Shown here: piece by piece, positions 1 to 55,109 of the stretch
Layout: each line of letters begins with the position of its first letter
How positions within the stretch are numbered: position 1 is the stretch's first letter
NCBI GenBank assembly: GCA_016871995.1
Contig: VHBL01000003.1
Coordinates: forward strand, 18,004 to 82,003
Source: Nitrososphaerota archaeon
GTDB lineage: Archaea > Thermoproteota > Nitrososphaeria > Nitrososphaerales > UBA57
Reading direction: 5' to 3'
Length of the DNA stretch: 64,000 nucleotides
Program-made: the position numbers and the translations under genes
The notes under the pieces: generated by a model
What the model saw: the letters and a program-made list of their open reading frames with translations, nothing else
The model's database searches: none
Told to the model about the DNA's origin: nothing

Positions 1-212
1 CTCAGCCCAACAAGCCGATGCGCTTTGCTCCAAAGATAACCCATGTTTACGAAGGTCAGACCGTGAACGTGCCAATCGCGGAGCTCAATGTAGTCGTTGG
101 CGAGGATGTCATGGCAAGGTTTTCGCTGCCAGTAGGAGCTGGGATTGCGATAGTTCTAGTGACATGGATACTTGTCAGAAGAGCTGTGCAGAAACCAGAG
201 GAAAAAGATTAG
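1..212 (+). CDS. 3' end of an ORF entering from upstream of the window; C-terminal membrane-anchored fragment, family not recognised
   Basis: Frame of ORF 18..212 stays open back to the window edge. Hydrophobic segment GAGIAIVLVTWILV is followed by a charged tail. Confidence 0.3.
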   Translation, partial: QPNKPMRFAPKITHVYEGQTVNVPIAELNVVVGEDVMARFSLPVGAGIAIVLVTWILVRRAVQKPEEKD

Positions 213-1285
213 CGCTCCCTTTTGCCCTCTACGAATTCGATGAACCTTCTCTTCGCCTCTTCGTAGGGTAGTTGTTGAGGGGGATGCTTGAAGCAGTATG
301 AGGAGACACTGGTCAGCGATCCTGAAACGCCTCTCTCCAGCCCCAATGCTGTTCCTCTAATTGCGTCTATCATTATACCTGCACTGTTGTAAGCATCCAC
401 GACATGCAGTTTCAAGTCTATAGTTAGGGGGATGTTTCCGAAATACCTCCCTTTGAGGTAGACGTAGCATATCTTGTCGTTGTCGAGGAAGTTGACGTAA
501 TCGCTAGGGCCTATTCTTGTTGGGACATCGTACGGAGCCATAGCCCTTACTGCACTTGTCTTACTCTCCCTCTTATCAACTAGCCTGCTCTCTTCGAGCA
601 TGTTCAAAAAGTCCGTATCCCCTCCAAGGTTCAACTGGTAGGTTTCATCGACCTTCACTCCCCTATCCACGCAGAGCTTTACGATAGTTTTGTGCAGAAC
701 TGTTGCGCCGAGCTGGCTCATCACATCATCCCCTGCAACTGGCAGGGAAGCCTTGGAGAACTTCTGCTCCCACTCCTCGTTGGAAGCGATGAATACGGGC
801 ATAGCGTTGACGAATGCAGCCTTTGCTGCTATAGCCTGTGCAGCATAGAACCTTGTCGCTTCCCCGCTGCCTACTGGAAGATAATTTACTACAATGTCGG
901 CTTGAGCGTCAGAAATAGTGTCAGAAACTTCTGTAGGTTCAACTTTATCGAGGGGGACGACATCTTTAAGATACTTTCCTATGCCGTCAAGTATCTTTCC
1001 CTTCTTCACCTTTACGCCCAGCCTTGGCACATCCGTTATTTTGATTGTATTGTTGGGCTTCTCGAAGATCGCTTCAGAAATGTCTTTGCCAACTTTCTTT
1101 GCATTCACATCAAAGGCTGCAACAAATTCTATGTCTCCCGGTTCATAGCCTCCAAGCGAATAACTTGTCAAGCCAATGGAATCTTCTTCGCCCCTAATCT
1201 TGTAGTATTCGGCGCCTTGAACCAAGGCTGAGGCGCAATTGCCTACCCCTACCAGAACAACCCTAATCTTTCGCAAAGCTGACAC
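209..1285 (-). CDS. ino1: myo-inositol-1-phosphate synthase (short archaeal/bacterial type)
   Basis: 358 aa with a GTG start. N-terminal dinucleotide-binding motif VVLVGVGNCASALVQG and the overall sequence pattern are typical of MIPS. Confidence 0.85.
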   Translation of the reverse strand: MSALRKIRVVLVGVGNCASALVQGAEYYKIRGEEDSIGLTSYSLGGYEPGDIEFVAAFDVNAKKVGKDISEAIFEKPNNTIKITDVPRLGVKVKKGKILDGIGKYLKDVVPLDKVEPTEVSDTISDAQADIVVNYLPVGSGEATRFYAAQAIAAKAAFVNAMPVFIASNEEWEQKFSKASLPVAGDDVMSQLGATVLHKTIVKLCVDRGVKVDETYQLNLGGDTDFLNMLEESRLVDKRESKTSAVRAMAPYDVPTRIGPSDYVNFLDNDKICYVYLKGRYFGNIPLTIDLKLHVVDAYNSAGIMIDAIRGTALGLERGVSGSLTSVSSYCFKHPPQQLPYEEAKRRFIEFVEGKRER

Positions 1286-1298
1286 TTCGGTATTCTAT

Positions 1299-1315
1299 AT
1301 TCATAATAACCTTTC
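1299..1315 (+). repeat. Left copy of perfect 17-bp direct repeat attcataataacctttc bounding the GC-rich island
   Basis: Identical 17-mer at 7781-7797. A second shared 11-mer, taaacttaatt, lies at 1323-1333 and 7773-7783. Confidence 0.8.
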
Positions 1316-1333
1316 TGAAAGGTAAACTTAATT

Positions 1334-1540
1334 GGGTCAGGTTGACTTGCCCAACCTACCCTCCCCCATCTTTTTGACAACTTGGCGGGCCCGAAGGGTC
1401 TTGACCCAGAAAGTGAGTCAACTAGCCTATTGGAGGAGGGCGTCAGACCTCCTTCCCAATTTTAAGTCATCTTTTGATGAGTTGCGGTTGGTTTTAACTC
1501 AATAGGCTAGGTTGACCTGCCCAGCCTACCCTTCAACACA
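1334..1540. repeat. Cluster of GGTTGAC-containing direct and inverted repeats and small palindromes just inside the left island junction
   Basis: gggtcaggttgacttgcccaacctaccct (1334-1362) matches aggctaggttgacctgcccagcctaccct (1504-1532) at about 24 of 30 positions. gtcaactagcctattg (1415-1430) is the near-perfect reverse complement of caataggctaggttgac (1501-1517). The palindrome gggtcttgaccc lies at about 1394-1405. Confidence 0.6.
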
Positions 1541-1655
1541 TTCTTAACAAATAGCGTGTCCGATACAAGAACGCTTTGCTTCAGACGGTGTGAATAGAAC
1601 GAAGACTTGCCAATTACTAGGACGATGAAAGGTGATCCTTTAGCTCGGAGATGAA

Positions 1656-2198
1656 TTAATCATGGCTATGATGTGGCACGACGGGCATCTGGCAACACCA
1701 AAACTCTCGCAGCGGGGCCTGCATTCTTGCCATAATATCGACTCCTCCTGCGTCGAATCCTACCGAATTATTTCCCTCTACAAGGAACAGCGAAATCTCA
1801 CTTGAACGCTTGGGTCTTGAAATATCATCGGAGTGATCTAACACGGTGTACAGTTACTTCAATCCGTTCTTGAGCGAATTCCAGAGAGGCCAGAGTGGTA
1901 GGCATCTAGGGTCAACTCCGGGTGAGACAAGACCACCAATGTTGAGGAACATGACTAGATCGTCTTCGAGGACAGGATCGTGAAGCCCGTCGAGTATCTT
2001 TCTGAAACTGATTTCTTTCTCCGCGTACTTACCGCTTGGTCCCCCAACCAAAAGCCCACGAAGGAGCGCTGTCCGGCGATCTACAACATGACAGATGTCA
2101 TCTGGATGTGTGCCAGGATTGTCTAGCTGCACGAGGCGCCGCTGAAATGAAGCCCGACCGAAGTCCGCAGAATCGGCCATCAGTGGAGAAAGAGTCAT
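1656..2198 (-). pseudogene. Hypothetical gene interrupted by one in-frame TAA (ORFs 1854..2198 and 1656..1844 share a frame)
   Basis: Both ORF-track entries are in the same phase and are separated only by TAA at 1854-1856 plus three sense codons. No family recognised. It may be non-coding high-GC noise. Confidence 0.3.
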
Positions 2199-3052
2199 TA
2201 GGTCTATCGAGCCACTCCGGGCTTGTGGACGACGGCGACCTGCGGGAGCTACTGACCAAGTTCGGACTCACCCTGTCCGAAGCGGATGTCTTCATCACCC
2301 TCGCGCAGCTCAGGAAATCGGGAGGCGGATGGGTAAGCGGAGCCGAGCTGGCAGAGCTGGCCGGGAAGCCCCGCGTAAGGGTATACCAGATAATTCAGGC
2401 CTTGGTTGGGCTCGGCCTCGTCCAGGCCAGCTTCGGGAGGCCCAAGGAGTATTCGGCGGAGCCGCCCCAGGTCGCGATGAGGAAGCTGGTCGCGGCTCAG
2501 GAGAGTAAGCTCAACGAACTGGCCCACCTCGAACAGCCGGCCGTCGAGGAGCTCCTGAGGCTGCCTCCCCTGGAGGATGGTCAAGGGGCCGGGAGGAGGT
2601 CGAGGATGTCGTTCAACATCGTTCAAGGGATTCCGAACATCCAAACCGCGATAAAGAGCGTCCTCAGATGCGAGGGTGCCTCCGTCGTGGTCAACAGGCA
2701 GTCCGTCGACCAGCTTGTCCCGACGCTGGGGTACCTGAAGGATGGACCGAGGTCGTTACGGCTCCTCGTCACGGGCGGGGCGGCCATGCCCAAATACGCG
2801 CGCAGGATAGGAAGGAAGGGCAGGCAAGTCGAGGTGAGGCGTCTCGCAGAGGAGATGCCGACGACGGTGCTCACGGAGATGACGTTCGTGCTCCTACTCT
2901 ACTCTGTCGAGAGCTACAGGCCGAAACCCCTATCTCGGCCAAGGGACAGGTCCACTGCCTCGTACTGCGTCTCGGTGTCGGACGATTCTTACCTGAAGCA
3001 GGCGGGGTGCCTCTTCCAGTCGCTCTGGCGCTCAGCCGGGGGAGCATCTTAA
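2147..3052 (+). CDS. TrmB-family transcriptional regulator (winged helix plus TrmB C-terminal domain)
   Basis: The N-terminal wHTH is LSEADVFITLAQLRKSGGGWVSGAELAELAGKPRVRVYQIIQALVGLGLV. The start is uncertain: ATG at 2147 chosen, while the ORF-track start 2036 overlaps the opposite-strand ORF. Confidence 0.7.
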   Translation: MKPDRSPQNRPSVEKESLGLSSHSGLVDDGDLRELLTKFGLTLSEADVFITLAQLRKSGGGWVSGAELAELAGKPRVRVYQIIQALVGLGLVQASFGRPKEYSAEPPQVAMRKLVAAQESKLNELAHLEQPAVEELLRLPPLEDGQGAGRRSRMSFNIVQGIPNIQTAIKSVLRCEGASVVVNRQSVDQLVPTLGYLKDGPRSLRLLVTGGAAMPKYARRIGRKGRQVEVRRLAEEMPTTVLTEMTFVLLLYSVESYRPKPLSRPRDRSTASYCVSVSDDSYLKQAGCLFQSLWRSAGGAS

Positions 3053-3087
3053 AGGCAGGTGTGCCGAATACTGATGGAACTGAGCCC

Positions 3088-3780
3088 ATGCCCAAGCTTT
3101 ATGGAGTATATCTCGACCTCTATCTGAGGGCCGTGTTGGACAAGGACAAGGCGGAGGCATTCTCCGTCATCAACGGCTTCCTCAAGATGAATTCAGATCC
3201 GGCGAAGGCATTCGGGATGATTGCCGCCGCCCAGACGGAGGTGGGCGACCTCTGGGCTAGCAACGCGATCAGCGTGGGCGACGAGCATTTCGCGACCGAG
3301 GTTGCGCTGGAGGCGATAACGGTGATAGCGAGCCAGTTCAGGCCGGCGAGGAGGGACGGCGCAAGGACCGCTCTCGTCGTAGGAGGAGTCGAGGGCGAGT
3401 TCCACCACGTCGGGGCGAGGATGTTCGCCGCATCGCTGGAGATCGAGGGCTGGCGGGTGGACTTCCTGACGAATCTGTCGACGAAGCATCTCTTGGATTA
3501 CGCAAAGGGGCGCAAGGGGAAGATAGACCTGGTTTCGCTGGGAGTGAGCCTCAGGCTGAACCTGCCCGCGCTCGAAACGGCCCTCGCCGATCTCCGCAGG
3601 CTGCCTGAACTCAGGGAGACAGTGATAATCGTGGGAGGGAGCATCTTCAGGGACCCGAGGCTGAAGAGGCGCCTCATAAAAGCGAAGGGGCACGGCGCGC
3701 TGGCGAACTGCGTCTGCACGACACTCGACGAAGGCATGAAGGCTGCCATGCGCCTCACGGCAGGCAGGCTGGCAGTGTGA
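3088..3780 (+). CDS. Stand-alone cobalamin (B12)-binding domain protein (helical cap plus Rossmann B12-binding module, no DNA-binding domain)
   Basis: WASNAISVGDEHFATEV matches the B12-binding-2 cap. GGVEGEFHHVGARMFAASLEIEGWRVDFL carries the E-x-H-x-x-G motif. ATG 3088 is in frame within ORF 2668..3780. Confidence 0.8.
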   Translation: MPKLYGVYLDLYLRAVLDKDKAEAFSVINGFLKMNSDPAKAFGMIAAAQTEVGDLWASNAISVGDEHFATEVALEAITVIASQFRPARRDGARTALVVGGVEGEFHHVGARMFAASLEIEGWRVDFLTNLSTKHLLDYAKGRKGKIDLVSLGVSLRLNLPALETALADLRRLPELRETVIIVGGSIFRDPRLKRRLIKAKGHGALANCVCTTLDEGMKAAMRLTAGRLAV

Positions 3781-3825
3781 TTCGGGAAGAAAAGGTATTT
3801 GGTCTGGCCGGGAGCACGCCCATCC

Positions 3826-4306
3826 ATGCAGCAGCTGCCATACCTATTCGCGGAGGGCCTCGCCTTGGGCCTTCTGTCGACAGCGGTAATGACACTCTTC
3901 GAGCTGCCGGCCTGGAGGAGGTGGGGGTATACGGGGAGTCCTCGAGTGGCATGAGAACGAGGAGATCTGCGCGAAGCTTGGAGGGAGGGGAGGCGGGACC
4001 AACTATGCGGGGGTCTTCGGGCTGCACTTCATCAACGGCGGAATAGCGGGAGGATCTTTCCCGGTTATCAGGCAGACCTTCCCGATATTCGGGTCCTTGC
4101 CGCTGCCTCATTACGGCCTCCTCTTCGGCGCCACCCTCTGGATTCTCAAGCTTCTTCCCATCCACAGGCCTATAACGGGTCTCAGCGTATGGAGGCACCC
4201 TCTGGGACGCGGTCCCGCGCTGGTGAGCATCGCAGGACATTTGATCTATGACTTGACCATGGCCTTGCTCGGCACGCTCTTGTACTGGCCGAATGTTAGT
4301 TTGTAA
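3826..4306 (+). pseudogene. Small polytopic membrane protein split by a +1 frameshift near 3893-3954
   Basis: ATG 3826 gives MQQLPYLFAEGLALGLLSTAVMTLFELPAWRRWGY and then stops at 3952-3954. The next frame continues GVLEWHENEEICAKLGG...GVFGLHFINGGIAGG... into ORF 4097..4306. Confidence 0.4.
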
Positions 4307-4360
4307 GTTTCTATGCGAAATTACAATCTGGTCATAAGGCGTGCGTTTCTTACCTTAGCC

Positions 4361-4807
4361 ATGCAAAAAACCATAACTAAAGACATCATCGACACCGCGG
4401 CGGACGCGGGGTCGTTCAAGACGCTGGTTGAGGCCTTGAAGGCAGCCAACCTCGTAGAGACACTGAAGGGGAGAGGCCCGTTCACCGTCTTCGCGCCGAC
4501 TGACGAGGCATTCGCGAAGCTTCCGAAGGGAACGGTCGAGGGGCTCCTCAAAGACATACCGAAGCTGACGGCGATCCTGACCTATCATGTTCTGCAGAAC
4601 AGGGTCTCAGCGAAGGAGGTTCTCGCCATGACCTCGGGAGGCAAGACTCCAGCGGTCGAGACGGTACAAGGGAGCACGGTTACCCTCCGGTCGAGGGGAA
4701 TACTCTCAAAGATCGTGTACGTGAACGACGCGAAAGTCGTGAAACTTGATGTGGAGGCCAGCAACGGCATCATTCACGTCATAGACAATGTGATCCTGCC
4801 TCCTTAA
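4361..4807 (+). CDS. Fasciclin (FAS1) domain protein
   Basis: [20 protein letters not shown] and [13 protein letters not shown] are classic FAS1 motifs. ATG at 4361 is chosen inside ORF 4313..4807. Confidence 0.85.
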
Positions 4808-4824
4808 GGCAGGGGCCTTTTTTT
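4806..4824 (+). terminator. Stem-loop plus T-run after the fasciclin gene
   Basis: aaggc-aggg-gcctt is followed by ttttttt. Confidence 0.5.
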
Positions 4825-4964
4825 CTTGGTGATGTTGCTTGGGACATACCGTCCCACGGGTCAAGAGCTCTTCTTTTTCTGGTCGGTGGCAGGAGACCTG
4901 GAGCCGGGGTGGAGGTGCTCTGAATTATTTCTCGCTGGAAGGAATGCCAGACAGCAAGGATGGC

Positions 4965-6011
4965 ATGCATCTTATGAAGGCGCTAATCGCGGGCGTAGTC
5001 GCAAGTGTCGCCTTTGCGTCTGCATTTTCTCCTTTCGCCCTCGGCCATGCACCGCTAGGTGCGGGAGACAACGAGGCCCTTGGCGACGCCACCCTGATTC
5101 CCAACGCTGAGAAGTCATGGGCAGTCTATGCAGAGCTTCACGAAGCAGGGGAGGCCCAGTACTACAAGTTCGACGTGACCTCGGGCCAGAGGCTCTATCT
5201 GATGCTCTATGCCTCCCCTGGCGATGCAGACGCCGGTTTCCTTCCACACATGGCCTTGATGGCGCCGGGAATCGACGATGAAGGTTCGCTACCCAAATAT
5301 GTCATTCTGCCGGAAGGCTACGGGTACAGGACTGTTCCAAGCAAGCGGGCCGAGAAGCCGAGCTACGAGGCCTTCGCGCCGGGCAGCTTCTACTCCCTCT
5401 CCGAGTTGCGCTTCGAGGCGGGGCAGGGCGGGACGTATTATGTGGTCGTGTTCGAAGAGAAAATGGGAGGTCGCTACGGGCTGGCCGTAGGCGAGCAGGA
5501 ATCATTTACGATTGAGGAATACCTACTCATTCCGTTCAGCACGCTGAATGTCTACCTTTGGTCGGGGCAGAGCCCAATACAAGTCATCGCCCCGATGGCC
5601 GCGGTAGTTGCAATAGGGATTGTGACGCTCTATCTAGCTCAAGTAAGGACAGCTGTCACCCGTTCTGCGGGATCCGCGCTTGCATATGTCGCAGGCCTGA
5701 TATTCGTGGGGAGCGCGGCCGTGAAGATCTACGTTATGCTCGTCGCCCTCAGCTGGACCGGATTGGTAGGCGATGCCATGCTAACCGTGACATTCGTCTT
5801 GGCGCCGCTCGGGATAGGAGCGTATGCCATGAAGTACAGCCTCGGCGGCAGACATCGGAGCCAGAGGGTTAAGATGGTCATCTTCGCTCTCCTTGGGTTG
5901 ATATCGTGGGGAGGTTTCCTCGTCGGTCCGGCCATAGCCGTCGCTGCCGCCATAACCCCGAGTTCGGGCGGCCAGCAGCGGACCTCACTGCATCGAGAGC
6001 AGTCAGGCTGA
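4965..6011 (+). CDS. Secreted/membrane protein: signal peptide, beta-sandwich-like extracellular domain, C-terminal multi-TM region
   Basis: MHLMKALIAGVVASVAFASA looks like a signal peptide. The C-terminal half is hydrophobic with several predicted TM helices. ATG 4965 is chosen inside ORF 4839..6011. Confidence 0.55.
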   Translation: MHLMKALIAGVVASVAFASAFSPFALGHAPLGAGDNEALGDATLIPNAEKSWAVYAELHEAGEAQYYKFDVTSGQRLYLMLYASPGDADAGFLPHMALMAPGIDDEGSLPKYVILPEGYGYRTVPSKRAEKPSYEAFAPGSFYSLSELRFEAGQGGTYYVVVFEEKMGGRYGLAVGEQESFTIEEYLLIPFSTLNVYLWSGQSPIQVIAPMAAVVAIGIVTLYLAQVRTAVTRSAGSALAYVAGLIFVGSAAVKIYVMLVALSWTGLVGDAMLTVTFVLAPLGIGAYAMKYSLGGRHRSQRVKMVIFALLGLISWGGFLVGPAIAVAAAITPSSGGQQRTSLHREQSG

Positions 6012-6052
6012 ATGCTCGGTGAAAGGAAGATGTTGCGGTCGCTGACATAAGC

Positions 6053-7342
6053 ATGAAAGGAATGACGACTATTCTGGTCACGGGGGCAAACGGCTTCGTA
6101 GGTCGGAGGCTAGTCACAAAGCTGCTCTCGGACGGCAAGTACAAGGTAAGGTGCCTGATCAGGCATCCTGACGTCGGTGCTGAGCTTGGAGATGTCGAAA
6201 GGGTCGTGGGGAACGCGAACGACTACGAGAGTCTCATGCGTGCTCTGACCGGCATCGATGTGGCATTCTACCTGATTCATTCTATGGAGGGCTCATCATC
6301 AAATTGGGAGCGGTTCGAAGAACGAGACCGAACGATGGCGCGGAACTTCGCGAAAGCCTCGACGAGCTGCGGGGTCAAGAGGATCATCTATCTCGGTGGC
6401 CTTGCATCAGGAGACGAATCGGCTCTCTCGAGGCATATGAGGAGCCGGCGGGAAGTGGGAGAGATCCTTCGGACTTCAGCCGCCGCCGTGACTATCTTTC
6501 GCGCGGCGGTGATATTGGGGGGAGGAAGCGCTTCATTCGAGATGATGTCCCAGCTTGTCGAAAGGCTGCCGTTCATGGTACTCCCGAGGTGGGTAACGAG
6601 CAAACTCCAGCCAATCGCGATAGAGGACGTCGTGACCTATCTAGCGGAGTCGGTAGGAAACGAGCTGACATCCGGTAGGGATTTTGACATCGGCGGTCCA
6701 GACATTTTAACATACCGTCAGATGATGGAGCGCTACGCGAGCAGGACCCACAAGAGGTTCCGCCCACTGATGCTTCCGTTCCTGACGCTCAACCTCTCAT
6801 CCTACTGGGTCGACCTGGTCACGGACGTCAACGCGTCACTTGCAAGGCCGTTGGTGGAGAGCCTCAGCAAGGACGCGGTGGTAGCAGATGATTCGATAAA
6901 GCGCGTAATGCCCTTCAGGCTCGCATCCTACGAGGAATCAATAGACGCCGCCCTGCGCGAAAGGAAGCCGAGGGAGAACTCCAGAAAGTCGAGGGACATC
7001 ACTCCGCTCTTGCTCGTCCTGGCCGCCTTGGGCTTGACGACGCTCGTAGCCGGTTCGCTTCCTGAACTGCTCGGTTCACTGTGGACCGGGCTGGTATTGC
7101 TTTGGCTCGTCGGCATTGGATATTCGCTCTTCTTCTTGCGTTTCGGAGCCCGGATGGGAGCACTTTCGGCTGGAGTCGTCGCCTGGCTCGCGCTAGCTTT
7201 CTGGATGCTCGACGCGGCGGTGGCGGTTCAGATGGCCGTTTCAGAATCAGGTTCGGCCATCGCGAGGGACATCGTCGGAATCGTCCTGGCAGCGGCAACT
7301 GTGCTTCTGTCCCACTTTAGCTTTCATGAGAGAAGGGAGTGA
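6053..7342 (+). CDS. NAD(P)-binding atypical SDR / NmrA-like protein with C-terminal transmembrane extension
   Basis: ILVTGANGFVGRRL is a Rossmann motif. The last 110 aa or so are hydrophobic helices. Confidence 0.75.
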   Translation: MKGMTTILVTGANGFVGRRLVTKLLSDGKYKVRCLIRHPDVGAELGDVERVVGNANDYESLMRALTGIDVAFYLIHSMEGSSSNWERFEERDRTMARNFAKASTSCGVKRIIYLGGLASGDESALSRHMRSRREVGEILRTSAAAVTIFRAAVILGGGSASFEMMSQLVERLPFMVLPRWVTSKLQPIAIEDVVTYLAESVGNELTSGRDFDIGGPDILTYRQMMERYASRTHKRFRPLMLPFLTLNLSSYWVDLVTDVNASLARPLVESLSKDAVVADDSIKRVMPFRLASYEESIDAALRERKPRENSRKSRDITPLLLVLAALGLTTLVAGSLPELLGSLWTGLVLLWLVGIGYSLFFLRFGARMGALSAGVVAWLALAFWMLDAAVAVQMAVSESGSAIARDIVGIVLAAATVLLSHFSFHERRE

Positions 7343-7780
7343 GGTCTTGCCATGGGCGGGTTGCCGGGGTTCGGTCAGGGTGCGAAATCCTGTATCTGTC
7401 GAGCACAGAGTTGTTGACTGATCGGAAGAATAGTTGGCTACTGCAAACCTCGTCCCGACGTCTGAAAGGGCACCTGTTATAGCCGTCTGGGAGATTCAAG
7501 ATGGCCATTAAAACGGAGCGAAGATTCCCACGAAGGCAATATAGGGGAGCATCGTCTTGGCAACGATGCTGAGGATGATGTAATATCTCTTGACGTACAG
7601 ATAATCCCTCCGGCGGCCGACTCCCCCGTCTTGCAGTACCGTGTTCACAGCGAATTTGTTGAAGAGGACCAAGTAATCGATAAAGTCCTCGAGGGGTTAG
7701 TTCCAAACTGAGAGGTCAATTCTCAAGGCTTTAGGAATGTCTGAAGGATAAAAAAATAAGTTTACATTTGTCTAAACTTA

Positions 7781-7797
7781 ATTCATAATAACCTTTC
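7781..7797 (+). repeat. Right copy of the 17-bp direct repeat; adjacent 8-bp inverted repeat taagttta/taaactta (7757-7780)
   Basis: Identical to 1299-1315 and lies about 20 nt upstream of the IMPase-family ATG. Confidence 0.8.
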
Positions 7798-7816: not shown

Positions 7817-8629
7817 ATGTCAGAATACAGAAGCACTATTGAAAAAGCATTCAGGAAACTCTATGCAGAGTTTTCAAGTGTCAGAAGCGATTCTAAAATT
7901 GCCAGTATTGTTGGAAGGGGTGCATCTGGAGACATAACGCATGTAATAGACGCCATGGCTGAAAAGATACTCATCGAATCCTTCAGAAAAGAAATGCCTG
8001 ATTGTACAATAGTTTCCGAAGAAATCGGCATCGTCAAAGGAAAGAACGATGCTCCAATTGTACTGATGGATCCAATAGATGGTAGCACCAACGCCGTTAG
8101 GGGCCTTCCCGTATTCTGCGCTACCGCAGGAATTCTTGAAGATAGAAGTTTCGGTAGCATGGAGGCTTCTGGCACAATCGACCTTGTCACCGGCGAAGTT
8201 ATTGTCGGAGATGAAGATGGTACGTATGTAAATGGAACAAAGGCAACTCTTAGCAAAGTTTCCAGACTGCAGGATGCCATAGTTTCGTACGAAGTCAAGG
8301 TCAGAGTCGAGAGACCGAAAAAGATGATCAGCAAGATGTACGAGCTCATCACCAAGACAAAGTATCCCCGGGTTCTTGGCTCTGCAGCCTTGGAGATTGC
8401 TTATGTTGCAATAGGGAGGATGGATGCATATGTCGCACCGGGGAACCAGCTCAGAAGCTACGACTGCCTTCCATCGATATTCTTGGTAAAGTCTGCAGGC
8501 GGCTTCGTTGAAGGGATTGGCCAAAACACTGATTCCGTAGATGTCATGTCAAGGGAGAGAGTTTCTTTTGTCGTTGCAGGAAACAGGACTCTCGGGAAGA
8601 TTCTCGCTAAAGAGTTTTCATCGCTATAG
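7817..8629 (+). CDS. suhB: Inositol monophosphatase / FBPase family protein
   Basis: 270 aa with the metal-binding motif LMDPIDGSTN and a family-typical length. Confidence 0.8.
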   Translation: MSEYRSTIEKAFRKLYAEFSSVRSDSKIASIVGRGASGDITHVIDAMAEKILIESFRKEMPDCTIVSEEIGIVKGKNDAPIVLMDPIDGSTNAVRGLPVFCATAGILEDRSFGSMEASGTIDLVTGEVIVGDEDGTYVNGTKATLSKVSRLQDAIVSYEVKVRVERPKKMISKMYELITKTKYPRVLGSAALEIAYVAIGRMDAYVAPGNQLRSYDCLPSIFLVKSAGGFVEGIGQNTDSVDVMSRERVSFVVAGNRTLGKILAKEFSSL

Positions 8630-29698: not shown

Positions 29699-29844
29699 AA
29701 GACGTCTTCTGGAGAACCATTATATAATTTTTCATAATGGTCTTCCAACCTATAATCAATTTCCGTTGCGTGAAAGTTCAGCAACTGACGAATCTTGTCC
29801 CAATTATCGGCACGGTTATATGGTCGAAGGATACATGCGCGATA

Positions 29845-32175
29845 ATGAAACAACAGATTACTCCGTTGAGTCTGATTGTGGCAATTCTTCTGCTGGTTTC
29901 ATCGCTGGCAACAATGTCACCACTAACACCCACACCGGTTTCTGTTGCGTACGGACAGGCCTCCGGAGTGGCAGGTGCCAACTGGGAATATGTCAACTCC
30001 CAGCAAGTTGGTGGGAGCTTTAACCCCCAGACCCAGATTACAAAGGACAACATCCAGTATTTGGAGACAAAATGGATCTACCCCTATGTCAGGCCCCCTG
30101 TACCTCAGACGATAGGAAATGGCTATGGTTCTGGTGCAGCCCCCCTAGTGGTCGATGGTGTAGTGTACATTGCAATGAATGATAGACGAATTTTGGCACT
30201 TGATGCTACGACTGGAAGGCTTATGTGGAACAACACATACGGAACCTCCTTCGATTCAGGCGCGCAATTAGCTAAGTATCCATGGCTATCAAGAGCAGGA
30301 GCTCACGTTCACTCAATGAACTTTTACAGAGAGAAAAACTGGCTCATTACGAGTAGCATAGGTTCATGTGAATCATACGCCGTGGATGCAAAAACAGGAA
30401 AGACCGCATGGGTTCTAACAACTGAGCAGATATGTGGGACAACGGCTGAGTTTGGAGAGCCAGCCAAGGGGATTGTGGGTTCCCTTGGGAATCAAGGTTT
30501 CATGTCTGGAGCGGGCTCCCACCCTCCTAAATTACTTGGAAACATCCTGTTCTACCCTGTTCCTGGTGGGAGTGGTTCAGGAGGAAGATCGTTTGTTACA
30601 GCATTTGACATGAGCGATCCTGCAAACCCCAAGAGACTATACAGAACATTTACCCAGCCTCCAGCTCAAGGAGATCCTGAATGGGCGATCAAACAATGTA
30701 CAGAAGCAAATGGTAATGGCTGGTATTTTGAATATCCAAGGTACCTTGAAGGGATAAACCATCCAGCGAGGGACAGAGAACCAACGTACCTAGCAACAAA
30801 ATGCACTGACGTGAGTCCAGATGTTGTAAGGAACGATGGGATGGATCTAGTACCAGGATCTCCAACCTATGGAAAGATGCACACAGCAACCAATCATGGC
30901 TCGGCCGTATGGGGCAACTATCCACTCGACGTTGAAACTGGGATAGTGATTCTTGGATGGGGTGATCAAGGGCCTTATCCTAACCTGACGCATAGATATG
31001 GGCCAGGTCTACATGGTAGCGGCTTCACTGCGCATGACGTTAGAACGGGTAAGCTCGTATGGTGGTTCAACGCGATTCCGCATGACCTCTGGGACTTTGA
31101 CTGTGCTTGGGGGGGCATCCTAGGTAAAACATCTGCAGGACAGAAGATCTACATAAAAGGTTGCAAGAGTGGACAGGTCTGGGGCCTTGATGCAACAACG
31201 GGCAAACCTGTCTGGGTATTCGACGCTCCGACGATTATCAGAAATACGGACATAAACTATGGAGTTGACAAGAACAACAACCCGAGGAGCCCTGATGCCT
31301 GTTGCAGGATGACGAAGGAACATATGGGTAAACCATGGCCTAACTATCCCAGCAAGGAGAAGATGTTCACAATCTGCTACACGCATTGCCTTGAATCCGA
31401 TATAGCTTCTGATGGAAAGTATGTATACGCAGCTACGCATAGCGAGCCGAGGGTCTTAACCGTAACAAATGTGAGAGGCTTTGGCAACCAGGGTTCGGCC
31501 GAAAGACTTTACAATGTAGCCGAGAAGAAATATGCAGCTGTAGCCGGGAGATACACGGAAGCGGACATAAGGGGGCTGACATACACGGTAATCTACGCAT
31601 TTGACATAAGTACAGGAAAGGAGGCGTGGAGAACTAGAATCGATGGTGTACCATTCAGAGGAGGTCTAACTGTGTCTGGCGGAGTTGTCATGGCATATGC
31701 CACTGATGGAAATCTAAAGTTCTTTGATGCAGGAACAGGCAAAATGATTTCCGAAAGATTCTTCGGGGTACCTGTAAATGTTCAACCTGTGATAGGTGCG
31801 ACAAAGGAAGGAAAGATGCGTGTCTTTATGCATGTCGGAGGTGGTGGAGGGATTACCCTCAATAATGCATTACCTATCGATGGTACGCTCGTAGCATTCG
31901 GCCTGCCTGATAAACTACCTGAACCTGTAGTCAAAGAAATCATAAAGGAAGTTCCAAAGGAGGTAGTCAAAGAAGTGGTCAAAGAAGTGGTCAAAGAAGT
32001 GGTCAAAGAAGTGGTCAAAGAAGTACCTAAGGAGGTCATAAAGGAAGTACCTAAGGAGGTAGTCAGGGAAGTGACAGTTGAAACAATTAGTCCAGCATCA
32101 TACGCTGTTATCGGTATAGGGATCGTGCTAATAGTCATATCAGGGATACTCTTCAGCAGAAGGAAGAAAGCGTAA
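29845..32175 (+). CDS. PQQ-dependent-dehydrogenase-like 8-bladed beta-propeller, signal peptide, KEVx repeat stalk and C-terminal TM anchor
   Basis: Repeated blade motifs are ALDATTGRLMW, AVDAKTGKTAW, AHDVRTGKLVW, GLDATTGKPVW and AFDISTGKEAW. ATG 29845 precedes the signal-like LSLIVAILLLVSSLA. Confidence 0.8.
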   Translation: MKQQITPLSLIVAILLLVSSLATMSPLTPTPVSVAYGQASGVAGANWEYVNSQQVGGSFNPQTQITKDNIQYLETKWIYPYVRPPVPQTIGNGYGSGAAPLVVDGVVYIAMNDRRILALDATTGRLMWNNTYGTSFDSGAQLAKYPWLSRAGAHVHSMNFYREKNWLITSSIGSCESYAVDAKTGKTAWVLTTEQICGTTAEFGEPAKGIVGSLGNQGFMSGAGSHPPKLLGNILFYPVPGGSGSGGRSFVTAFDMSDPANPKRLYRTFTQPPAQGDPEWAIKQCTEANGNGWYFEYPRYLEGINHPARDREPTYLATKCTDVSPDVVRNDGMDLVPGSPTYGKMHTATNHGSAVWGNYPLDVETGIVILGWGDQGPYPNLTHRYGPGLHGSGFTAHDVRTGKLVWWFNAIPHDLWDFDCAWGGILGKTSAGQKIYIKGCKSGQVWGLDATTGKPVWVFDAPTIIRNTDINYGVDKNNNPRSPDACCRMTKEHMGKPWPNYPSKEKMFTICYTHCLESDIASDGKYVYAATHSEPRVLTVTNVRGFGNQGSAERLYNVAEKKYAAVAGRYTEADIRGLTYTVIYAFDISTGKEAWRTRIDGVPFRGGLTVSGGVVMAYATDGNLKFFDAGTGKMISERFFGVPVNVQPVIGATKEGKMRVFMHVGGGGGITLNNALPIDGTLVAFGLPDKLPEPVVKEIIKEVPKEVVKEVVKEVVKEVVKEVVKEVPKEVIKEVPKEVVREVTVETISPASYAVIGIGIVLIVISGILFSRRKKA
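31927..32070 (+). repeat. 12-bp-period coding tandem array (12 units, 4 perfect copies of gtggtcaaagaa at 31975-32022) encoding (K-E-V-x)n
   Basis: Direct reading of the sequence. It translates to VVKEIIKEVPKEVVKEVVKEVVKEVVKEVVKEVPKEVIKEVPKEVVRE. Confidence 0.9.
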
Positions 32176-51585: not shown

Positions 51586-52768
51586 CTAGTATAGATAATC
51601 TCTGTTCGACGCTTCTGAGATTATTGTAATCCCTGGTCTGTCTAATTCAGGCCGTCTGGATTTTAGATTACTGTCATCTCTTTGGGACACGACTACTGGA
51701 TATGTACGCTTTCCAACCAGATCGTCCTTTGCAACATGGAGAGCCAGGCATAAAGCCCAGAATTGGTCATCATGCCTGTTTTCTGGGTGCTGATATTTCA
51801 TTGTACCTGCTGTTGAATAGACCCGCTCCTGTTCCTGTATCTGGATTTTCAGTTCCTCGGCTCCTTTCCTTGGAAGTTTCAAGCGCTTCTGCTGGAGGAG
51901 CATAAGGAGAAATTGAACCATGTCGTGCTTGGACTGGGCTGTAAATGCCATTCCTTCAACAGGTATGTATTTTGCGTCATATTGCTCGATAACGGCTTCT
52001 CCAACAGTACTCTTGTCCAGCCCTAAATTTTCCCATTTGTACTTTTCGTAGAGTGCCTCTGTATCTTGTATAATTGTGTTGTAATCTACATGGGGCCACT
52101 GTTTTACTCCTACTACTCGTGCTATTGACTCATCAGAATCGTCCTGCTCTTCTATTCGTATGATGACCAGAGCTGTAAAGTCTCTGCGCTTGGCTAGATC
52201 TTGGCCTGCGTAATAATCGCTCATATTTTGTCCAACTCGTAGTCTGCTAAACTCCCATCGATCAGTTCTGGAGGTACTGCCGCATTCTGCACGTTGAGGA
52301 AATTACACTCGTACTCTTGGCAAAATGATGGGCCTAGGGCGATCTTCTCTTGCTCTATCTCTTCTGGGTCTATCAGGCCCGGTGCCACATGAATGGGAGG
52401 ATGAATTTTCTGACCGAGTCATCATTGCTGTATAGCCTGTAGAAGAAGCCTCTCTGCCCGTTCGGAGTTGAAACTAGGACGAAATCTCCTTGTGTGTTGA
52501 TTAGTGTTGGCCTTAAGGCTGTGTAAATGGTTTCGTCGTTCAGTCTTATGAAATGCGCCGCTTCATCTAGGTAGACTGCTTTGACGCGATCAAAACCTCT
52601 TAGAGATTGTGCTGTACTTGGCAGGGAGAATATTTCGCAGCCATTTTTGAGGACCAGATTATCAGATTTTGTCTTTGCTATCTCTGACTCCAATATAGAA
52701 AGGTTCGGAAGGATGATAGATCGTTTCCAGAATTTTTCATACATGCACTGAATATCAATGCAAGCCAA
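51586..52768 (-). pseudogene. Terminase large subunit remnant (N-terminally truncated, two frame breaks)
   Basis: The ATPase Walker B region is AVYLDEAAHF...VSTPNGQRGFFY (52373..52768). The middle piece, in a second frame, reads ...FCQEYECNF... (52221-52372). The RNaseH-like nuclease region is GQDLAKRRDFTALVI...HDDQFWALCLA (51586..52224). Confidence 0.8.
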
Positions 52769-53019: not shown

Positions 53020-55109
53020 ATGGATCCAAAAGATTCATTACGGCTAAAAAAGACTGTTGCCTTTGCGGTTGTGACAGTCTTAACACTGTCCATGTTAACC
53101 GCGGTAATACCCCCTATGAAACAAGCAGAAGCTCAGGCTTCACTACCTGCAGATCAAAGAAACTGGGAACGAGTCAATGGGAATGAATTTGGATGGAATT
53201 ACAATCCCCAAAATCAGATCAACAAGGATACTGTGAAGTCACTAGAACTAAAATGGGTCTATCCAGTACCAACTGTTACCCAGCAGAACTTGAAGCTCGG
53301 AGGTCTTGTGGTGAATGAAGGTGCAATGGCTCCTCCAATTGTAATCGACGGGACGGCATATCTTGCTCTGAACAGCAGGAACATATTGGCTCTGGACGCA
53401 AAGACTGGGAAACTGCTTTGGACATATCAAAATGAGTTCAATAACACGGGTTTGCAAAACAGGCTTCCACTTCTTACTGAGAGAACTCATCAGCATGGAA
53501 TCAATTACATCGATGGTATGATCTGGCAAAATGATTATGGATGCAAACTGACTGCTATAGATGCTAAGACAGGGAAGGTTGCAAGGCAGCACACTAACCT
53601 CTGCTTGGAAATTCCTCTGAATAGTGCTCAAGGAATGGGAGTTCCGACAAACTCTGGATTCTATGCGGGTGCAGCAGCACATCCACCACCATATTACAAG
53701 GCTGGTAACCTTCTGATATGGGCTATTGGAGGTTCGGCTGAGGGAACTAACGGAGGAAGATCATTCGTAGCAGGAGTAGATGCTACCACGGGTCAGACCA
53801 AATGGCGATTTTTCTATATACCTCCATGCGGAGACCCTGCAACATGTAAACCTCTATTCCAAAGAGAGAAGCAAGAATGGGGTCAATGGCTTGTCGATAA
53901 CTGCAATAAGATATGGATACAACAGATCAAATCATGTCAGGTAGACCAAGACTTGCTGAGAAACGACTTTGGAAACATGAGGTTCAATTCTGGAGTTAGT
54001 AAGTGTGGGGTACAATGGTAGTAGATCAGGAAACTGGCATACTCTACTTTGGAACTGCGCAAGCTGGTCCAGACTGGAATGCAACATATGCTCCAGGCTT
54101 CAGATTATTCGGAGCATCAATAATTGCAATAAATGCAAATACCGGCCAACTAGTATGGGCCCATCAGACTACTGCAAGAGACCTCTGGGATTATGACTGC
54201 TCATGGAATACGATACTGGCTACAGCAAAAGTGAAGGGACAGAATAAGAAAGTTGTCATAAAAGGCTGCAAGAACGGAATCGTTTATGTGCTTGACGCAG
54301 CAACAGGCGAAGCTTATCACATACTTGAAGGTCCAGATATGAAGCGAACGCCATTAGCCCAACTATATGATCCAAGAAACAAGGAACAGATGACAAAGCC
54401 ATGGACAAACTATCCTAGCAAAGATGCATTCTGGATGAATTGTCCTGCATTTGGATGTCTTGAATCAGACATTGCATACGACCCAACAAGGAATATGGTA
54501 TACGCAGCCATCATGAACTCGCCACAATGGTCTAAGGTTGGAAATGCAGAACTTAGAGGCGTAAGCCTCGCATCGGCGCCTGCAGGAACACCTCCATTCA
54601 CACCAAGTACCAATGCGACGATCAGTGCGTGGGACCTTGACACTGGTCAGCTAAAATGGAAGTACTTTATTGATGGAAGAGGATTCAGGGGAGGAGTAAT
54701 GGTCAGCGGAGGTCTGGTATGGGGTTCAGCAGTAGATGGATACAACAGGGGATTGGATGCGGATACGGGTAAAGTAGCCTACGAAGCTAACCTAGGTGTC
54801 TCTACTCTTACTCAGCCTACAATGGCAGCAGACTCTGACGGCAAGATCAAACTTTTCAGAATAGTCGGAGGACAGAGCGTCATATTCGGAGGAGCCAACT
54901 CGTTATTCTCTCAAGCACCCGGTGCACTGATGGTATACGGACTACCAGATACGATCCCAGCGCCAAAGGAAATAATCAAAGAAGTACCTAAGGAAGTCAT
55001 AAAGGAAGTAACCGTAGAAACAGTGAGCCCAGTATCCTATGCAATAGTAGGAATAGGCATCATAATAGCTGTAGTAGGAATAGTACTATCGAGAAGAAAG
55101 AAGGCGTAA
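53020..55109 (+). pseudogene. Second PQQ-dehydrogenase-like propeller paralog, interrupted by a single frame shift near 54000
   Basis: ORFs 53020..54021 and 54003..55109 overlap in different frames. Aligned to the paralog at 29845..32175, the junction reads NSGVS(x)VWGTMVVDQETG. It has a short KE(I/V)x stalk and the same TM/RRKKA tail. Confidence 0.75.

Follow-up and report, generated by a model that had tools for sequence, protein, structure and literature searches.

A candidate composite integrated element between the divergent ino1 and IMPase-family genes of an uncultured Nitrososphaeria archaeon

We analysed a 64,000-nucleotide stretch of DNA, referred to as the window, from a Nitrososphaerota archaeon (GenBank assembly GCA_016871995.1, contig VHBL01000003.1, positions 18,004 to 82,003), in which ino1, the gene for myo-inositol-1-phosphate synthase (MIPS), is separated from a divergently oriented, suhB-like gene of the IMPase family by an insert of 6.5 kb; both genes serve inositol synthesis. 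On balance, we lean towards reading nucleotides 1305–7782 as the composite remnant of a site-specifically integrated element, now probably immobile, that sits on a TATA box shared by the two genes. It would be a decayed, integrase-less element with cargo turnover, at an insertion hot spot that is, in general terms, of a known kind. This reading appears to be supported by empty sites, by the conserved adjacency of the two genes and by five filled sites whose junctions have an identical architecture. An earlier sequence-only reading had proposed a single GC-rich island bounded by a 17-bp direct repeat, which is right in outline but too simple, since the history has several layers: the insert has terminal inverted repeats (TIRs) at its boundaries and recurs in several species, the certain target duplication is only 4–7 bp and the GC-rich 5.5 kb were nested in the insert later.

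The direct repeat exists as it had been described. An exact search finds the 17-mer ATTCATAATAACCTTTC in two copies (Table 1), with 13 nt between the left one and the GTG of ino1 and 19 nt between the right one and the IMPase gene's ATG; no third copy was found in the 64-kb window with three mismatches allowed. The chance expectation is 0.17, none of 100 shuffled sequences reached two matches, and apart from two repeats in surface-protein genes the 17-mer is the longest dispersed exact repeat of the window. The two 29-nt TIRs agree at 20 of 29 positions at offset 0, which is equalled by none of 1000 shuffles, and each has an internal dyad symmetry, AATTAAG...CTTAATT. The inner 16 nt of the left TIR (1318–1333) are conserved, and in the window lineage its outer 11 nt coincide with host sequence; in the window alone, host ATAACCTTTC followed by TG replaces these outer 11 nt, giving the perfect 17-mer. 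The inner 16-mer shows no enrichment within the window. An 11-mer, TAAACTTAATT, had also been reported at both ends. It is indeed present at 1323–1333 and 7773–7783, but three matches against 1.5 expected are not above chance, and it is meaningful only within the 29-nt TIR, where it forms the inner arm at one end and the outer arm at the opposite end; we therefore reject it as the core of an attachment (att) site. The local inverted repeat noticed at the right end is real (7754–7764 / 7773–7783).

Four further lineages (L009, L132, L089 and L134) carry different inserts of 0.8–2.6 kb at the same nucleotide. In all five filled sites the host sequence runs to ...ATTCAT and is followed by a TIR of approximately 29 nt, and the inverted TIR stands directly before TCATAATAACC... 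(TGAT in L134). The TIR pairs of the five lineages match at 19–22 of 29 positions at offset 0, a level equalled by 0–2 of 1000 shuffles. The cargo differs completely between lineages and consists of a copy of the p57 gene, of DUF433/PIN-like or VapB-like genes, or of 5.5 kb of GC-rich genes. The protein p57 (55–60 residues) is 65–95% identical across Nitrososphaeria and has its native locus in the order scpB-p57-rps8e-SRP19; a copy of 320 nt, including the upstream region, lies inside the ino1/suhB insert of three lineages. As p57 is a core gene across Nitrososphaeria with a native locus elsewhere, we rejected it as a marker of an element family. Some source names for p57 (CdvB, CobN) look spurious. 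Further evidence for cargo turnover comes from an open reading frame (ORF) of 80 residues (L132 145–387), which contains cysteines (a possible zinc ribbon) and is present in the L132 insert and absent from L009.

The window insert shares approximately 230 nt (L segment) and 115 nt (R segment), at opposite ends, with the inserts of L009, L132 and L134. Relative to these three, the whole interior is inverted in the window and the outer junctions are colinear. In L009, L089 and L134 the certain duplication is TCAT only, or ATTCATA if terminal TIR bases are counted; direct repeats equal to the single empty-site copy thus measure 4–7 bp in the other lineages and 17 bp in the window. The ino1-side sequence ATTCATATT(A/T)AGTCTTTTC is nearly identical in L134, L009 and L089, and this conserved, imperfect copy would fit an exchange limited to an overlap of approximately 7 bp better than a perfect duplication that has decayed. 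The window lineage branches among others that have the imperfect ino1-side copy, so that its perfect 17-bp repeat is a derived state.

Empty sites are found in L010/L093 (MIPS 92–93% identical) and L011 (90%), where ino1 and the IMPase gene are divergent and 52–66 bp apart. These sites carry exactly one 17-mer (for example, ...ggattctatATTCATAATAACCTTTCccactctgcactggaggagaaaATG), and this is the ancestral state of the locus. Far more distant Nitrososphaeria also have the order OMPdc-NUDIX-IMPase<->MIPS. The sequence-only reading had supposed that the genes were once divergent neighbours on a short shared promoter region and had named an empty site with adjacent ino1 and suhB and a single 17-mer as the test; both expectations are borne out. 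None of the window's cargo genes was found by tblastn at 80 related loci. A tree built from three flanking proteins has the topology (L011,(L134,((L089,W),(L093,L009)))), where W is the window lineage; L011 and L093/L010 are empty and the others filled. The pattern therefore implies either one old insertion that the L093 lineage later lost without a scar or several insertions that each struck the same base, and both histories point to a precise, site-directed process.

The 17-mer is perfect in six lineages (W, L009, L089, L132, L093 and L011) and has one change in L134; because the neighbouring bases vary, it appears to be under constraint. Within it, CATAATAA lies approximately 29–32 nt from both start codons in the empty sites, with ino1 counted from TTG 1276. 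This TTG, rather than GTG 1285, is probably the true start of ino1, since L011 lacks the GTG, leaving the TTG as its only available start, and since most orthologues align from residue 4. On the minus strand the 17-mer reads GAAAGG-TTATTATG, which would represent a B recognition element (BRE) plus TATA box for ino1, and the right copy is predicted to hold the TATA box of the IMPase gene. From its conservation, its spacing to both starts and the BRE-plus-TATA arrangement, we infer that the 17-mer is a single bidirectional TATA element of the two genes. Insertion at TCAT would split this element. The IMPase side would keep the host copy, and on the ino1 side a TATA-like TTAATATG would be supplied by the TIR in L009, L089 and L134 and a full copy of the host sequence in the window. 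The proposal that the insert duplicated its target, so that both genes keep a TATA-containing copy, is thus upheld, with the TATA boxes read from the sequence. T-runs and hairpins just inside both ends (1334–1376; A7 at 7747–7753, minus strand) are placed where transcription in the orphaned direction of either promoter copy would begin, and may stop the orphaned transcripts.

The G+C content is 0.570 for 1316–7780 and 0.586 for 2199–7696, compared with 0.443 in the window's remainder. In tetranucleotide usage, the GC-rich core has an L1 distance of 0.554 (host windows 0.134 ± 0.019, maximum 0.193), its composition-corrected tetranucleotide correlation is 0.56 (host 0.90 ± 0.03), and G+C at third codon positions (GC3) is 0.68–0.81 in cargo genes and 0.42–0.58 in host genes. 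The compositional jump seen in the sequence-only reading is thus confirmed, and its hand counts of 40/60 G+C (2401–2460) and 27/60 (8041–8100) are exact, but the repeats are not its limits: the departure is confined to 2199–7696, the flanking parts 1316–2198 and 7697–7780 are host-like or lower in G+C, and the jump is out of step with the repeats. Given the G+C and GC3 boundaries, the truncated heliorhodopsin gene and the truncated hydrolase pseudogene, the block of approximately 2199–7696 is a later acquisition nested in an older TIR frame. Its edges look like illegitimate joins and not like element edges.

Both junctions and 6.7 kb are contained in one contig, with 0–1 mismatches, in three independent assemblies (ENA ERZ27247963, JGI 3300020193 and Logan SRR16108666), and a fourth assembly covers each junction on separate contigs. 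The contig is therefore not chimeric, a fault that the sequence-only reading had wanted excluded. The Logan assembly of SRR16108672 (L002, L006) breaks at approximately 7334–7360, just right of the YbjT-like gene, into contigs that overlap by approximately 27 nt, which hints at a strain variant there.

According to the mechanism that we favour, the original insertion would have been a conservative site-specific recombination between a near-palindromic element site (...GGCTTA-ATTCATA-TTAAGTC...) and the host site (...TTCTAT-ATTCATA-ATAACCT...), with a recombinase, most likely of the tyrosine type, supplied in trans. The joined ends form a palindrome, GGCTTAA-TTCATA-TTAAGTC, with a centre of 6–7 bp, and the host half-sites weakly resemble the element arms; we favour conservative recombination because of these two properties and because three lineages have the same imperfect ino1-side copy. 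The element ends would provide substitute promoter halves and T-runs, so that the flanking genes would stay expressed and orphan transcription into the insert would be stopped. Later illegitimate recombination would have swapped the cargo. In the window lineage, the interior would also have been inverted and the ino1-side junction reset to a perfect host copy of the 17-mer, for which the candidates are short-patch conversion by its counterpart, loss followed by re-insertion, or a variant element site. Thaumarchaeal att sites are short, ranging from 8 to <26 bp, and 15 of 68 are intergenic (PMC6563490); their median length is 17 bp and the minimum 8 bp (PMC6563490; PMC8371274).

Several observations weigh against this reading. 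Genes for an integrase, a transposase, Cas1 or a polymerase were found in none of the five inserts (the window insert was searched with Pfam, PHROGs and NCBIfam on all ORFs and on six-frame pieces of the end regions), and precomputed Pfam hits from approximately 10 kb left of ino1 to approximately 59 kb of the window contain no integrase, transposase or Cas1; the lack of an integrase, transposase or tRNA had already been noted in the sequence-only reading. The TIR was not found elsewhere in 1.57 Mb of related DNA with up to six substitutions, the end motifs have no matches in IMG/VR, and the left-end segment (1299–1660) has no match in plasmid or phage collections; on these grounds, there is no direct evidence of present-day mobility. 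The scar-free empty site of L093/L010, nested among filled lineages, is only an indirect hint of excision. TIRs abutting a short duplication, together with both interior orientations, fit an insertion of the transposase or casposase type equally well, and scar-free loss can arise by slippage between short duplications that flank a palindrome. From a 7-bp overlap one would not expect the window's perfect 17-bp repeat, for which a further event has to be assumed, and the sequence is the sole basis for the promoter and terminator roles.

The 32 IMG/VR matches to the bare 17-mer are due to chance, as their context is unrelated. A split SSV-type integrase at the ends was rejected because the end ORFs have no integrase similarity and the broken genes are those of a hydrolase, a membrane protein (DUF6789-like) and a heliorhodopsin. 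A degenerate TIR pattern gave no matches in a metagenome collection, which says little: the collection evidently lacks the Lake Tanganyika and L089 contigs, since a plain-junction pattern did not recover them either, and the TIR of the one lineage present in it (L132/L133) departs from the degenerate pattern at one position. The plain-junction pattern recovered two contigs of one further lineage from the same collection.

Insertion of a non-autonomous transposon- or casposon-like element is an unlikely alternative, though one to be taken seriously. An enzyme acting in trans would join the TIR ends to staggered target cuts, and gap repair would duplicate the target, by 13–17 bp in the window and by 13 bp in older copies that are now identical at 9–10 of 13 positions; free orientation would explain the inverted interior, and the window copy would be a fresh re-insertion after loss. 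This would agree with the TIRs abutting the duplication, the occurrence of both orientations, the perfect repeat of the window and the ungapped alignment of the old ino1-side copy (ATTCATATTAAGT versus ATTCATAATAACC, 10/13). In Nitrosopumilus koreensis, the family-1 casposase is specific for its target but accepts nearly any DNA end; the duplication that it generates, ATTGATAAAGAGT, has 13 bp and is measured off an ATAA motif (positions 5–8), and the apparent genomic repeat (22 bp) is longer than this enzymatic duplication (PMC8464041). The first 13 nt of the 17-mer (1299–1311) share 8 of 13 positions with ATTGATAAAGAGT (9 of 13 in L134, 6111–6123), among them ATAA at the same positions, A1 and A11. 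Though suggestive, the likeness is weak, and neither T13 nor the TTT leader, which are reported to be required, has a counterpart. Moreover, neither Cas1 nor PolB was found in or near any insert (outside the inserts according to precomputed Pfam), the right TIR has 5–11 nt without a partner in the 13-bp model, the element is single-copy in all DNA examined, and the same imperfect ino1-side copy in three lineages would require early decay followed by stasis.

It is improbable that no dedicated element was involved and that the shared promoter is a fragile, AT-rich, TBP-bound spot that traps DNA by illegitimate recombination and local duplication or inversion, with TIRs that are inverted promoter-like copies. 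The inner TIR GAAAGGTAAACTTAATT does resemble the reverse complement of the 17-mer, GAAAGGTTATTATGAAT, at 11 of 17 positions, part of the cargo is host DNA (the 320-nt p57 copy from the scpB-rps8e locus), no recombinase was found and the unit is single-copy; but five lineages have their junctions at precisely one base, the 29-nt TIRs being at offset 0, and an empty site nested among filled ones is scar-free, a precision not expected of illegitimate events. Integration in one step of a single GC-rich 6.5-kb foreign island, which would itself have made the 17-bp repeat, is very improbable and in our view largely refuted. It accounts for the perfect repeat with its one copy in empty sites and for the strong compositional shift, but not for ends (1316–1560 and 7667–7780) that are host-like in G+C and common to the L009, L132 and L134 inserts, none of which has a GC-rich gene. 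In addition, one end of the block lies within a truncated heliorhodopsin gene, the other adjoins a hydrolase pseudogene that is 5'-truncated and host-like in GC3, and the sister lineage L089 has the TIR frame without the block. That the segment is an invertible switch between the divergent genes, flipped by a site-specific invertase, is highly improbable: the window interior is inverted relative to L009, L132 and L134 with the outer junctions in register, and the ino1-side repeat of L009 looks like a hybrid of the two window repeats, but all window-population contigs that include either island end have a single orientation, there is no invertase gene, and one historical inversion between repeats suffices. 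An assembly chimera, in which DNA of a high-GC organism was joined into a low-GC contig, would explain the abrupt change in composition and the break near 7334–7360 in one Logan assembly; with both junctions spanned by three independent assemblies and a junction architecture common to other species, it is hardly credible.

Table 1. Features of the window insert, its flanking genes and the inserts of related lineages (positions refer to the window unless a lineage is given)
Feature	Position or size	Strand	Description
ino1 (MIPS)	209–1285	-	Left flank; Pfam PF01658, E = 2e-28
Left 17-mer copy	1299–1315		Single copy in empty sites; perfect ino1-side copy in window lineage only
Left 29-nt TIR	1305–1333	+	Homologous to L009 and L132 ends; matches right end 20/29
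L segment	1334–1560	+	Common to L009/L132; inverted in window
Alpha/beta-hydrolase pseudogene	1656–2198	-	In-frame TAA 1854–1856; scrambled 3' end; 5' part cut off by GC-rich block
GC-rich block	2199–7696		G+C 0.59, GC3 0.68–0.81; absent at site from all relatives
TrmB-family HTH regulator	2225–3052	+	Pfam PF01978, E = 2.5e-11
Stand-alone B12-binding protein	3088–3780	+	Pfam B12-binding_2, B12-binding; weak NCBIfam matches to CarH, corrinoid proteins
Frameshifted membrane-protein gene	3799–4306	+	Both frames match one intact gene on L099, L096
Fasciclin-domain protein	4361–4807	+	Pfam PF02469, E = 6e-38
Membrane protein, no assigned family	4944–6011	+	Weak PPC match only
YbjT/NmrA-like NAD(P)-binding protein	6053–7342	+	C-terminal membrane domain; Pfam
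Heliorhodopsin 3' fragment	7511–7696	-	Last ~55 residues; 5' two-thirds missing; GC3 0.73 as in block
R segment	7667–7753	+	Common to L009, L134, inverted relative to them; ends in A7 run (7747–7753)
Right 29-nt TIR	7754–7782	-	Holds local hairpin TAAGTTTA/TAAACTTA; same architecture in L009, L089, L132, L134
Right 17-mer copy	7781–7797		Host-derived
IMPase-family gene (suhB-like)	7817–8629	+	Right flank; Pfam PF00459, E = 2e-28
L009 insert	2.6 kb		DUF433 and DUF5615/PIN-like genes (toxin-antitoxin-type pair), small ORFs, p57 (57 residues)
L132/L133 insert			Related to L009 insert; content partly different
L089 insert	958 bp		VapB-like antitoxin and 140-residue partner
L134 insert	763 bp		Essentially p57 only
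p57	L009 7619–7792; L132 856–1029; L134 5722–5895; L140 820–993		

The L segment contains a hairpin and T-run motif twice (1334–1376 and 1504–1545), and two copies each are present in L009 and L132. The motif, GGGTYAGGTTG-N7-CARCCTACCC, forms a 10-bp stem with a 7-nt loop, shows only one compensatory pair and is followed by a C-rich tract and the T-run; the window hairpins have folding energies of -13.6 and -12.4 kcal/mol (z-scores -2.2 and -3.1). As a bacterial-type intrinsic terminator the motif was rejected, since the T-run begins 10 nt past the stem and a scan for this reason does not call it. The whole window has no Rfam match at gathering score, and no tRNA was found in it.

The gene content of the insert is as had been listed, with the correction that three genes are broken rather than two: the hydrolase, the membrane protein and the heliorhodopsin. 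The hydrolase pseudogene has a host-like GC3 (0.5), and its homology to proteins P0256 and P0257 (46–47% identity), the latter of which matches Abhydrolase_1, runs across the stop codon. The intact homologue of the frameshifted membrane-protein gene (L096–L098) has a faint DUF6789 mark. The heliorhodopsin fragment matches Pfam PF18761 (E = 1.1e-13, profile positions 189–241 of 242) and PDB entry 6is6 (E = 9e-9, residues 202–258), and one of its lysines aligns within the SxVAK segment that is conserved in solved heliorhodopsins. The cut in the gene falls at the onset of homology to the R segment of L009; the R segment itself is 82% identical to L009 9868–9981 over 116 nt. The B12-binding protein weakly resembles the sensor part of CarH, and with its TrmB-type HTH regulator, the B12-binding protein that follows it and the heliorhodopsin, together with a gene for a pyrimidine-dimer glycosylase that adjoins the YbjT homologue on L096, the block looks like a light-related module.

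The best homologues of the block genes are at most 56% identical and lie on contigs with a G+C content of 0.55–0.64 that show partial synteny. For the YbjT-like protein the best non-self homologues are 55% identical, and no close relative exists outside the window population; its named matches, approximately 50% identical, belong to Nitrososphaeraceae, Nitrosopumilales and Nitrosopolaris. On the high-GC contigs the YbjT-like gene stands beside a DUF6789-like gene, and on L099 it is also near fasciclin and B12-binding genes. Since the best matches are on high-GC contigs and the named relatives are Nitrososphaeria, the donor was probably a higher-GC archaeon, possibly of the same class, that has not been sampled closely. 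The view that the cargo is foreign therefore stands insofar as composition and absence from relatives indicate acquisition, but the nearest named relatives (approximately 50% identity) are other Nitrososphaeria and not members of another phylum.

Among known systems, the nearest described class is that of thaumarchaeal cryptic integrated elements (Krupovic et al. 2019, PMC6563490), which come from the same phylum, have short direct repeats (median 17 bp) and intergenic targets, were likewise validated by empty sites and also carry toxin-antitoxin and metabolic genes. However, they are defined by an integrase gene, which the ino1/suhB inserts lack, and the target here appears to be a bidirectional promoter rather than a tRNA gene or a gene 3' end; the 29-nt inverted-repeat ends and the different cargo in five lineages also set the ino1/suhB frame apart. 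The family-1 casposons of Nitrosopumilus are similar in being thaumarchaeal, in having TIRs, a target duplication and strict target specificity, and in an AT-rich duplication with ATAA whose apparent genomic repeat exceeds the enzymatic duplication (PMC8464041; PMC6563490). They differ in that the ino1/suhB inserts lack Cas1 and PolB, the usual casposon target is the 3' end of ef-2, and the required target positions are only partly matched here. A casposon would duplicate approximately 13–15 bp at a specific target; the duplication here has 17 bp in the window and agrees at 10 of 13 positions in the older copies. To our knowledge, non-autonomous casposons have not been described.

Bacterial IMEX elements have no integrase and exploit the host XerCD recombinase at dif, and they use a short palindromic site with a centre of approximately 6 bp. 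The inserts described here resemble them in the absence of an integrase and in the short palindrome with a centre of this size, but the target is a promoter and not dif; we know of no archaeal example. Cargo-carrying non-autonomous transposons and MITE-like elements also have TIRs, a short flanking duplication and no transposase, but the present inserts are single-copy and site-specific in 1.57 Mb of related DNA, and their cargo reaches 6.4 kb and varies between lineages. At integration hot spots between core genes, unrelated accessory genes, including those of the toxin-antitoxin type, gather in one interval; the ino1/suhB interval is of this kind but has a boundary fixed at the nucleotide level with conserved inverted repeats. 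Of the features of genomic islands, the insert has the departing composition and the absence in close relatives, but no mobility gene and no tRNA target. No integrase as expected for an integron is present among the called genes within 10 kb (precomputed Pfam).

The locus offers a clean natural example of a tolerated insertion into what we read as a bidirectional archaeal promoter, with each gene keeping or gaining a TATA-containing copy, and its empty, small and large states can be compared across related species. Surveys of thaumarchaeal elements that rely on integrase genes miss integrase-less inserts bounded by inverted repeats. The possible light-related gene set (TrmB-type regulator, B12-binding protein and heliorhodopsin) has passed into a freshwater thaumarchaeon and then partly decayed. 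A bolder and rather doubtful extension is that the TIR frame represents a previously undescribed, integrase-less archaeal cargo platform: moved in trans by a chromosomal or co-resident recombinase resembling XerA or a family-1 casposase, it would settle specifically on the TATA box that two divergent genes have in common, replace the promoter halves with its ends, terminate the orphan transcripts and exchange its cargo, here a light-sensing module. If the ends are indeed substrates of a host recombinase or a casposase, the system would provide a testable model of trans-mobilisation in archaea.

Judged by the flanking genes, the window belongs to Nitrososphaeria (Thaumarchaeota) that are uncultured and come from fresh water and ground water. 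The orthologues of ino1 in L009, L089, L093 and L011 are 90–96% identical. At 51586–52768 (minus strand), 44 kb from the island, a large-terminase gene is split into three ORFs (131, 55 and 212 residues) with a weak match to Terminase_6N and a match to Terminase_6C; this pseudogene is a provirus remnant and, among the precomputed Pfam hits from approximately 10 kb left of ino1 to approximately 59 kb of the window, the only trace of a mobile element, with no integrase nearby. Two secreted proteins (29737–32175 and 54003–55109) have a (V/I)KEVPKEV repeat in common at the C terminus, and both carry a membrane anchor and an RRKKA tail. The genes for these large secreted proteins contain repeats at 31966–32020, 32015–32032 and 54976–54993; one of them has a 12-nt tandem repeat, and an 18-mer is common to both.

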